A stretch of 64,000 bases of DNA from an uncultured archaeon (GTDB taxonomy: Archaea > Asgardarchaeota > Thorarchaeia > Thorarchaeales > Thorarchaeaceae), in contig CAZSWP010000010.1 of NCBI GenBank assembly GCA_964610875.1, positions 23,764-87,763 on the forward strand. Reading direction: 5' to 3'. How positions within the stretch are numbered: position 1 is the stretch's first letter; every line of letters starts with the position of its first letter. The notes below the pieces were generated by a model. It was not told where the DNA came from and did no database searches. It worked only from the letters and a program-made list of their open reading frames with translations. Position numbers and translations under genes: made by a program. Shown here one piece after another: positions 20,582 to 25,825 of the stretch.

Positions 20582-20631
20582 CTTGAATCCTAATAAGAAT
20601 GGAGGACACTATACAGCACCAAACAGCAACG

Positions 20632-20639
20632 TTAATATT
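20632..20639 (+). promoter_or_regulatory. TATA-like box of tRNA-Asn
   Basis: TTAATATT about 25 nt upstream of the tRNA 5' end. Confidence 0.5.
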
Positions 20640-20664
20640 GCTACTCGATTTGTCACCGAATCAA

Positions 20665-20863
20665 GCCACCGTGGCTCAGTCAGGTAGATTTGTGCTTTTG
20701 ACGAAGCACATCGCCGAAAGCGACAGATGCAACGAATCCTCGTTGTGCCGCTAAAGCCTGTTATCTTTCAATCAACAGGTTGAGAGTCAGACAGTTGTTG
20801 GTCCGAGGTTCGATCATTCTCGCACGTCTGTGGTGAGGAAAGGAACCCCTCGCGGTGGCGCCA
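20665..20863 (+). tRNA. tRNA-Asn(GUU) with four introns (about 20688-20718, 20725-20754, 20764-20792, 20815-20846)
   Basis: Removing four hairpin inserts gives a 77-nt cloverleaf: GCCACCG TG GCTC AGTCAGGTA GAGC G ACAGC CTGTTAA GTTGT TGGTC CGAGG TTCGATC CCTCG CGGTGGC G CCA. Confidence 0.88.
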
Positions 20864-25718: not shown

Positions 25719-25825
25719 TGGTGGGCCCGAGGGGACTTGAACCCCTGGCCGTTCCCTCATCTAAAGGAAACCTTCAGATGTACAGGTTATGAGCCTGCTG
25801 CTCTACCAAGCTGAGCTACGGGCCC
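25719..25825 (-). tRNA. tRNA with CAU anticodon (probably Ile2), 30-nt intron at position 43/44 (25752-25781)
   Basis: GGGCCCG acceptor, GCAGG-CTCATAA-CCTGT arm, AGGGG-TTCAAGT-CCCCT, encoded CCA; 77 nt after intron removal; the GGGCCC acceptor favours Ile2 over Met. Confidence 0.88.

Follow-up and report, generated by a model that had tools for sequence, protein, structure and literature searches.

How could an archaeon be supplied with tRNA-Asn when its genome appears to hold no gene for it? The question is raised by positions 20665–20863 (+) of the window, by which we mean the whole 64,000-nucleotide stretch analysed here, on contig C10 of a 3.75 Mb Thorarchaeia assembly (124 contigs, ~41% GC, 95% complete, 5.8% estimated contamination). 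In its unspliced form this locus was missed by both ARAGORN and Rfam/Infernal, each of which detects two other tRNAs in the window; an earlier sequence-only reading had expected standard annotation to pass over the gene, and for ARAGORN and the Rfam tRNA model, the two finders run, it was right. The tRNAs for Asn, Cys, Tyr and Ile(GAT) are among those missing from the 35 ARAGORN calls and 30 Rfam matches obtained across the whole genome. A second tRNA-Asn, the presence of which the sequence-only reading had asked about, was found in the 95%-complete genome neither by ARAGORN with introns allowed nor by blastn-short with the mature sequence. We used blastn-short in place of a scan for GUU anticodon arms with or without an intron at 37/38, which was noisy and overlooked the true gene because its second intron splits the anticodon stem. 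As the only tRNA-Asn gene of the genome is invisible to ARAGORN and Rfam, annotation pipelines could report an organism without tRNA-Asn. Judged by its sequence, the locus is a genuine tRNA-Asn(GUU) gene with four predicted introns of the bulge–helix–bulge (BHB) type.

The locus is 199 nt long and consists of five exons and four introns (Table 1), with introns accounting for 122 of the 199 nt (61%). When the exons are joined, ARAGORN calls a 77-nt tRNA-Asn(gtt) with a 7/4/5/5-bp cloverleaf, in which the acceptor stem has 7 bp, the D-stem 4 bp, the anticodon stem 5 bp including one G·U pair and the T-stem 5 bp, and which ends with a G73 discriminator and CCA. Re-reading of the window thus reproduced exactly the exon and intron lengths and boundaries originally proposed, including the intron content of about 61%, and the ARAGORN call on the spliced sequence bears out the proposed 77-nt cloverleaf with G73 and CCA. 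The five exons are colinear and lie on one strand within 199 nt, which sets the gene apart from the split or permuted tRNA genes of Nanoarchaeum, Caldivirga and C. merolae. A quinolinate phosphoribosyltransferase is encoded 6 kb away, with nearest matches in Thorarchaeota or Promethearchaeota MAGs at 56–69% identity.

Table 1. Parts of the interrupted tRNA-Asn(GUU) gene and its putative promoter, in window coordinates.
Feature	Positions	Strand	Length (nt)	Description
Putative promoter	20622-20640	+		BRE-like ACAGCAAC plus TATA box TTAATATT (20632-20639), ~25 nt 5' of tRNA nucleotide 1
Exon 1	20665-20687	+	23	acceptor 5' strand, U8 G9, D-stem 5' strand, D-loop, G22
Intron 1	20688-20718	+	31	site 22/23 (D-arm); HBh'-type relaxed BHB
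Exon 2	20719-20724	+	6	micro-exon AGCGAC, A23-C28; invariant among the 11 genes sharing the four intron sites
Intron 2	20725-20754	+	30	site 28/29 (anticodon stem); HBh' type, strict central helix
Exon 3	20755-20763	+	9	micro-exon AGCCUGUUA, A29-A37, anticodon GUU within
Intron 3	20764-20792	+	29	canonical site 37/38; hBHBh'
Exon 4	20793-20814	+	22	A38, anticodon-stem 3' strand, variable loop, T-stem 5' strand, U54-U59
Intron 4	20815-20846	+	32	site 59/60 (T-loop); hBHBh' with the T-stem as h
Exon 5	20847-20863	+	17	C60, T-stem 3' strand, acceptor 3' strand, G73, encoded CCA (20861-20863)

Evidence for this anatomy comes from relatives. We searched 40 relatives with BLAST and then scanned all 86 family genomes with a sequence pattern, which recovered an orthologous tRNA-Asn gene with the same exons in 47 genomes (46 besides this one); exon 3 is matched exactly in 47/86 genomes, and a reversed control pattern matched 0/86. 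In the spliced alignment the introns of these orthologues occupy six sites (22/23, 28/29, 37/38, 43/44, 50/51 and 59/60) in many combinations: three of the 47 genomes have one intron, 12 have two, 15 have three, 14 have four, this genome among them, and three have five. A single genus covers the whole range from one to five. Every gene is interrupted, the canonical 37/38 site is always occupied, and the architecture of our gene recurs in a set of 11 genomes that spans several genera. In relatives without a given intron, the exons are contiguous exactly at the predicted junction; for example, the intron 1 site is empty in 27/47 relatives, which read GGTAGAGCGAC uninterrupted. Because intron-less relatives read through the predicted junctions, the intron boundaries are fixed independently of any splice motif. 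The sequence-only reading had pointed to intron presence and absence in relatives as a check, and the junctions agree across 47 genomes, six sites and one to five introns. The Rfam tRNA model, moreover, scores less interrupted orthologues at 54.3 bits (one intron) and 39.7 bits (two introns). The three five-intron genes (L125 in G063, L133 in G077 and L135 in G079) are 218–225 nt long and equal the published maximum for any Asgard tRNA.

Are the inserts of a kind that an archaeal splicing endonuclease would recognise? Following the literature, we define a BHB as a four-position central helix (H) and two 3-nt bulges, with cleavage after the second bulge nucleotide (arrows below). The bulges are exactly 3 nt at all four introns. 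The central helix of intron 2 is strict (AGCG/CGCU, 4/4 pairs; bulges AC↓A and AA↓A; 7-bp hairpin), and the other three are relaxed forms with 3/4 pairs: intron 1 has AGGU/GCCG with an A·G mismatch (bulges AG↓A and AA↓A; 8-bp hairpin), intron 3 CUGU/UCAG with a U·U mismatch (bulges UA↓U and AC↓A; 9-bp hairpin) and intron 4 UUCG/AGGA with a G·A mismatch (bulges AU↓C and AC↓C; hairpin of ~8 bp). The ends described beforehand as strict or relaxed therefore divide into one and three, and the four hairpins named beforehand are all present, forming an h' helix of 7–9 bp in each intron. On the exon side, the anticodon stem serves as helix h for intron 3 and the T-stem for intron 4, but such a helix is lacking at introns 1 and 2. 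The cloverleaf that ARAGORN calls on the joined exons is matched by the same contiguous sequence in intron-less relatives.

The proposed positions 22/23, 28/29, 37/38 and 59/60 all stand, the last favoured by the motif itself. Intron 4 forms its best BHB at 59/60, and a shift to 60/61 would give an identical product with a poorer motif. In a free-position BHB scan of the T-loop intron, 59/60 was best in 9/10 relatives tested, and in eight of these nine, splicing there restores the T-loop TTCGAGC of two intron-free relatives with the same T-arm. The T-loop of this genome's own spliced tRNA-Asn is TTCGATC.

Covariation supports these helices. In an alignment of the 11 genes sharing the four intron sites, variation is concentrated in the hairpins, with exons and intron H' strands almost unvarying; the nearly constant exon 1 changes in the acceptor strand in a compensatory manner (G-C/A-U and U-A/C-G). 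In the BHB structure 85.8% of cells are paired, as against 36–49% with the partners slid, and double-sided changes affect 23 pairs, as against 5–12 in the slid controls; none of 500 shuffles reached the observed values. A register-based, alignment-free count over 20, 22, 47 and 29 instances of introns 1, 2, 3 and 4 revealed two to six Watson-Crick or wobble pair types at nearly all h' positions. For intron 1, the h' pairs show two to five types per position, and the first H pair, which joins a D-loop base to intron position -3, covaries (A-U in six instances, C-G in six and U-A in two). The H pairs of intron 2 are 100% paired in the alignment, with 4/4 pairs in 20/22 family instances. For intron 3, H pairs 1–3 are paired in 47/47 instances and h' positions in 39–47 of 47, with two to five pair types per position. 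Intron 4 shows four to six pair types per h' position, and 7/7 of its h' pairs carry double changes in the alignment.

The sequence-only reading had also implied a splicing endonuclease of broad specificity, and the genome encodes a candidate of this type. A search with PF01974 detects two EndA paralogues, an alpha subunit (G000:C12, 102.8 bits) and a beta-like subunit (G000:C3, 70.8 bits). The alpha subunit, of 191 aa, aligns with A. pernix EndA over 178 residues (E value 1.7e-44), and its catalytic Tyr/His/Lys region is intact. Its loop GQPVGIRKPK aligns to the Crenarchaea-specific loop (CSL), with IRKPK opposite the VEKPR that contains K44, the RNA-recognition residue in the A. pernix CSL that is required for cutting non-canonical introns (Hirata 2011, PMC3241643). 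Compared with the A. pernix (alpha-beta)2 enzyme (PDB 3P1Z, 3AJV), the loop region is alike (GQPVGIRKPKSPEFEKP here versus GQPLDVEKPRGADFEGP), a Lys is aligned with K44, and a separate beta paralogue is likewise present, although the enzyme here is predicted from sequence. The beta-like subunit (207 aa) has the M. kandleri fusion 5X89 as its closest structure and is nearer to it than to a crenarchaeal beta. An RtcB ligase is also encoded (588 bits). At the level of genes, the genome thus appears equipped with an EndA for non-canonical or relaxed motifs, of the (alpha-beta) type with a specificity-broadening loop, and with a ligase. This set agrees with the (alpha-beta)2 EndA with an L1 loop already assigned to Asgard archaea generally (Kaneta et al. 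2018, PMC5829648).

We consider it highly probable that the locus is the sole functional tRNA-Asn(GUU) gene of the genome, expressed from its own promoter, with its four BHB introns removed by EndA and its exons joined by RtcB into a 77-nt tRNA. The most likely course is ordinary archaeal protein-catalysed tRNA splicing, carried out four times on one precursor. First, the TATA/BRE promoter would drive a transcript of ~200 nt. Each short intron would then fold with its adjoining exon into a BHB of two 3-nt bulges, a four-position helix and an intron hairpin, and the heterotetramer-type EndA (alpha plus beta, with the Crenarchaea-specific L1 loop in alpha) would be expected to cut at both bulges. 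Finally, RtcB would ligate the exons into a standard 77-nt tRNA with its encoded CCA. With exons 2 and 3 as short as 6 and 9 nt, simultaneous cutting at eight sites would be risky; more probably, each intron is cut out and its flanking exons are joined before the next is processed.

Several observations count against this explanation, namely the 3/4 pairs in three of the central helices, the estimated MAG contamination of 5.8%, and the preference of RNAfold for other structures. Forming all four BHBs gives -62.9 kcal/mol, compared with an unconstrained minimum of -75.0 kcal/mol (a gap of 12 kcal/mol), and for introns 3 and 4 the predicted probability of the H helix is near zero. The alternative helices of the minimum-energy fold use intron sequence that is not conserved. 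Since the nearest-neighbour model disfavours even the canonical intron, conserved in 47/47 genomes, we do not regard it as informative about BHB motifs.

The same calculations bear on a narrower alternative, in which only some of the inserts are EndA introns and intron 1, intron 2 or both, which lack the outer exon helix, leave by another route or depend on a strict order or a helper. These two introns are of the HBh' type, and their H helices interfere with each other in silico, the probability of the intron 1 helix rising from 0.10 in the full precursor to 0.83 once intron 2 is removed. Moreover, a recent Asgard census (Goswami, Ghosh and Sinha, bioRxiv preprint 10.64898/2026.10.13.758758) reports many D-arm inserts without a canonical motif and demonstrates splicing for none. 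We nevertheless judge this alternative improbable. Intron 2 has a perfect 4-bp helix, kept in nearly all instances, between 3-nt bulges; the first H pair of intron 1 links an exonic D-loop base to the intron and covaries; and CSL-bearing EndA cleaves HBh' substrates (Hirata 2011; Kaneta 2018).

A broader alternative, that the locus is a decaying tRNA pseudogene with accumulated insertions and that the real tRNA-Asn lies in the unassembled 5% of the genome, is still less probable. It would accommodate an assembly that is about 95% complete and in 124 contigs, as well as the failure of ARAGORN and Rfam to recognise the locus. Against it, every exon position is intact, the substitutions that relatives show in the acceptor and T-stems are compensatory, the identical four-intron architecture is found in 11 genomes from several genera, and 47/47 recovered family genes are interrupted, at least by the canonical intron. 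The promoter element and CCA are conserved as well. The TATA-like box that had been pointed out upstream is present, and an 18-nt motif combining BRE and TATA (ACAGCAAYGTTAATATTG) precedes the gene by 25–30 nt in nearly all relatives, across 13 genera, within flanks that have diverged beyond alignment; these features suggest a promoter function. Finally, an assembly artefact, or a chance cloverleaf obtained from four freely chosen deletions, which could indeed over-fit such a structure, has a negligible probability and is refuted by independent assemblies of 46 other genomes, in which the gene recurs with subsets of these inserts at identical positions, by contiguous junctions in relatives and by the empty reversed-pattern control, which together place the tRNA-Asn structure far beyond chance.

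Two aspects of the ends of the gene deserve separate mention. Conservation of the upstream element at tRNA-Asn is unusually strong and gene-specific: among 66 genome matches to the motif core, a tRNA lies downstream at the tRNA-Asn gene only. We accordingly rejected ACAGCAAYGTTAATATTG as a general tRNA promoter, as no other tRNA of this genome follows it. At the 3' end, CCA is encoded in most orthologues, and about a dozen relatives have CTT, CTA, CTC or CCT instead; CCA encoding is not fixed within the family.

How unusual, then, is a tRNA-Asn gene with four introns? Known Thermoproteales tRNAs have up to three introns per gene and resemble the present case in carrying several non-canonical BHB introns in one gene alongside an (alpha-beta)2 EndA with the Crenarchaea-specific loop. 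On this basis the sequence-only reading had regarded four introns as exceptional, a view that does not survive comparison with Asgard genomes, and its premise of three as the known maximum per tRNA gene is outdated. In three complete Atabeyarchaeia and Freyarchaeia genomes, 92–95% of tRNA genes are interrupted (Valentin-Alvarado et al. 2024, Nat Commun, PMC11291895), and four introns are listed there (Supp. Data 4) for Arg-TCT, Ile2-CAT and Leu-GAG of Freyarchaeia and for Trp and Lys of Atabeyarchaeia-2. The Asgard census gives a mean of 2.2 intervening sequences per tRNA gene in its three focal families and a maximum of five inserts in a single gene, and in the family studied here 14/47 genomes have four introns and 3/47 five.

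The parallels with these Asgard genes are close. As in Atabeyarchaeia and Freyarchaeia, the host is an Asgard archaeon, introns occupy non-canonical D-arm and T-arm positions, and a gene can hold up to four of them; here two lie in the D-arm/anticodon-stem region and one in the T-loop, and the gene escapes ARAGORN and Rfam. The census likewise found D-arm inserts often missed by tRNAscan-SE, enrichment at BHB motifs, repeated gains and two EndA paralogues in most genomes. There are also differences. The tRNA-Asn genes of Atabeyarchaeia and Freyarchaeia have two introns, whereas ours has four and its host class is Thorarchaeia. The focal families of the census are Freyrarchaeaceae, Jordiarchaeaceae and Atabeyarchaeaceae, and 'Thor' is absent from its main text. 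Our gene leaves knowledge of the upper limit of introns per tRNA unchanged; to the Asgard groups for which heavily interrupted tRNA genes have been published, it adds Thorarchaeia.

More broadly, the tRNA-Asn gene of this family is a well-sampled locus (47 genomes, six sites, one to five introns) for studying intron gain, loss and relocation, and could also serve to explore which substrates the Asgard (alpha-beta)2 endonuclease accepts. In Thermoproteales, the multiple-intron tRNAs of which were described by Sugahara et al. (2008) and Fujishima et al. (2010), ~28% of introns belong to sequence families shared between tRNA types. The four introns here differ in this respect: searches elsewhere in the genome gave no significant matches, and as copies of one another the four have pairwise scores within shuffle noise. 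Within the family, by contrast with the other site pairs, the 30-nt introns at 43/44 (for example, in L040, L044 and L125) and at 50/51 (for example, in L045, L113, L125 and L128) form one sequence family, with a mean between-site identity of 0.68 compared with 0.31–0.45 for other site pairs and 0.36 for shuffles. The two sites are 7 nt apart and both are occupied in two genomes (G063 and G067). To judge from these sequences, an intron seems to have been relocated or duplicated to a site 7 nt away within the same gene. On whether the family's tRNA-Asn genes are a natural series for intron turnover, in which the 43/44–50/51 introns may record local re-insertion or duplication within the gene, we are evenly divided. 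If true, this would provide a concrete arrival route for Asgard BHB introns. How introns arrive is a question that the 2026 census left open, and a within-gene route lies outside its tests, which addressed copying between tRNA types and not inside one gene.

The isoacceptors absent from the ARAGORN and Rfam results (Cys, Tyr, Ile-GAT and others) are probably hidden for the same reason as tRNA-Asn, which would imply further multi-intron genes in this assembly. About half of the 30 Rfam tRNA matches exceed 90 nt, the longest reaching 164 nt.

Three further observations were made along the way. An interrupted tRNA-like gene, unreported by the ARAGORN or Rfam searches, can be recognised by eye at G000:C89:150-420 (-); its acceptor strands read GGGCCAG...CTGGCCC, its anticodon loop is CTCTTAA (Lys-CTT-like), and it contains two inserts of ~30 nt. 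Within the window, the tRNA at 25719-25825 (-) has anticodon CAT, scores 61.9 bits with Rfam and carries a 30-nt insert at 43/44 (anticodon stem/variable loop), with no obvious likeness to the 43/44 intron family of tRNA-Asn; ARAGORN with introns allowed mis-parses it as tRNA-Val(tac). Finally, at least 67 nt surrounding the motif CTTAATATT are identical between G000:C3:~151150 and G000:C37:~35365; this may be a repeat or mark a redundant MAG contig.
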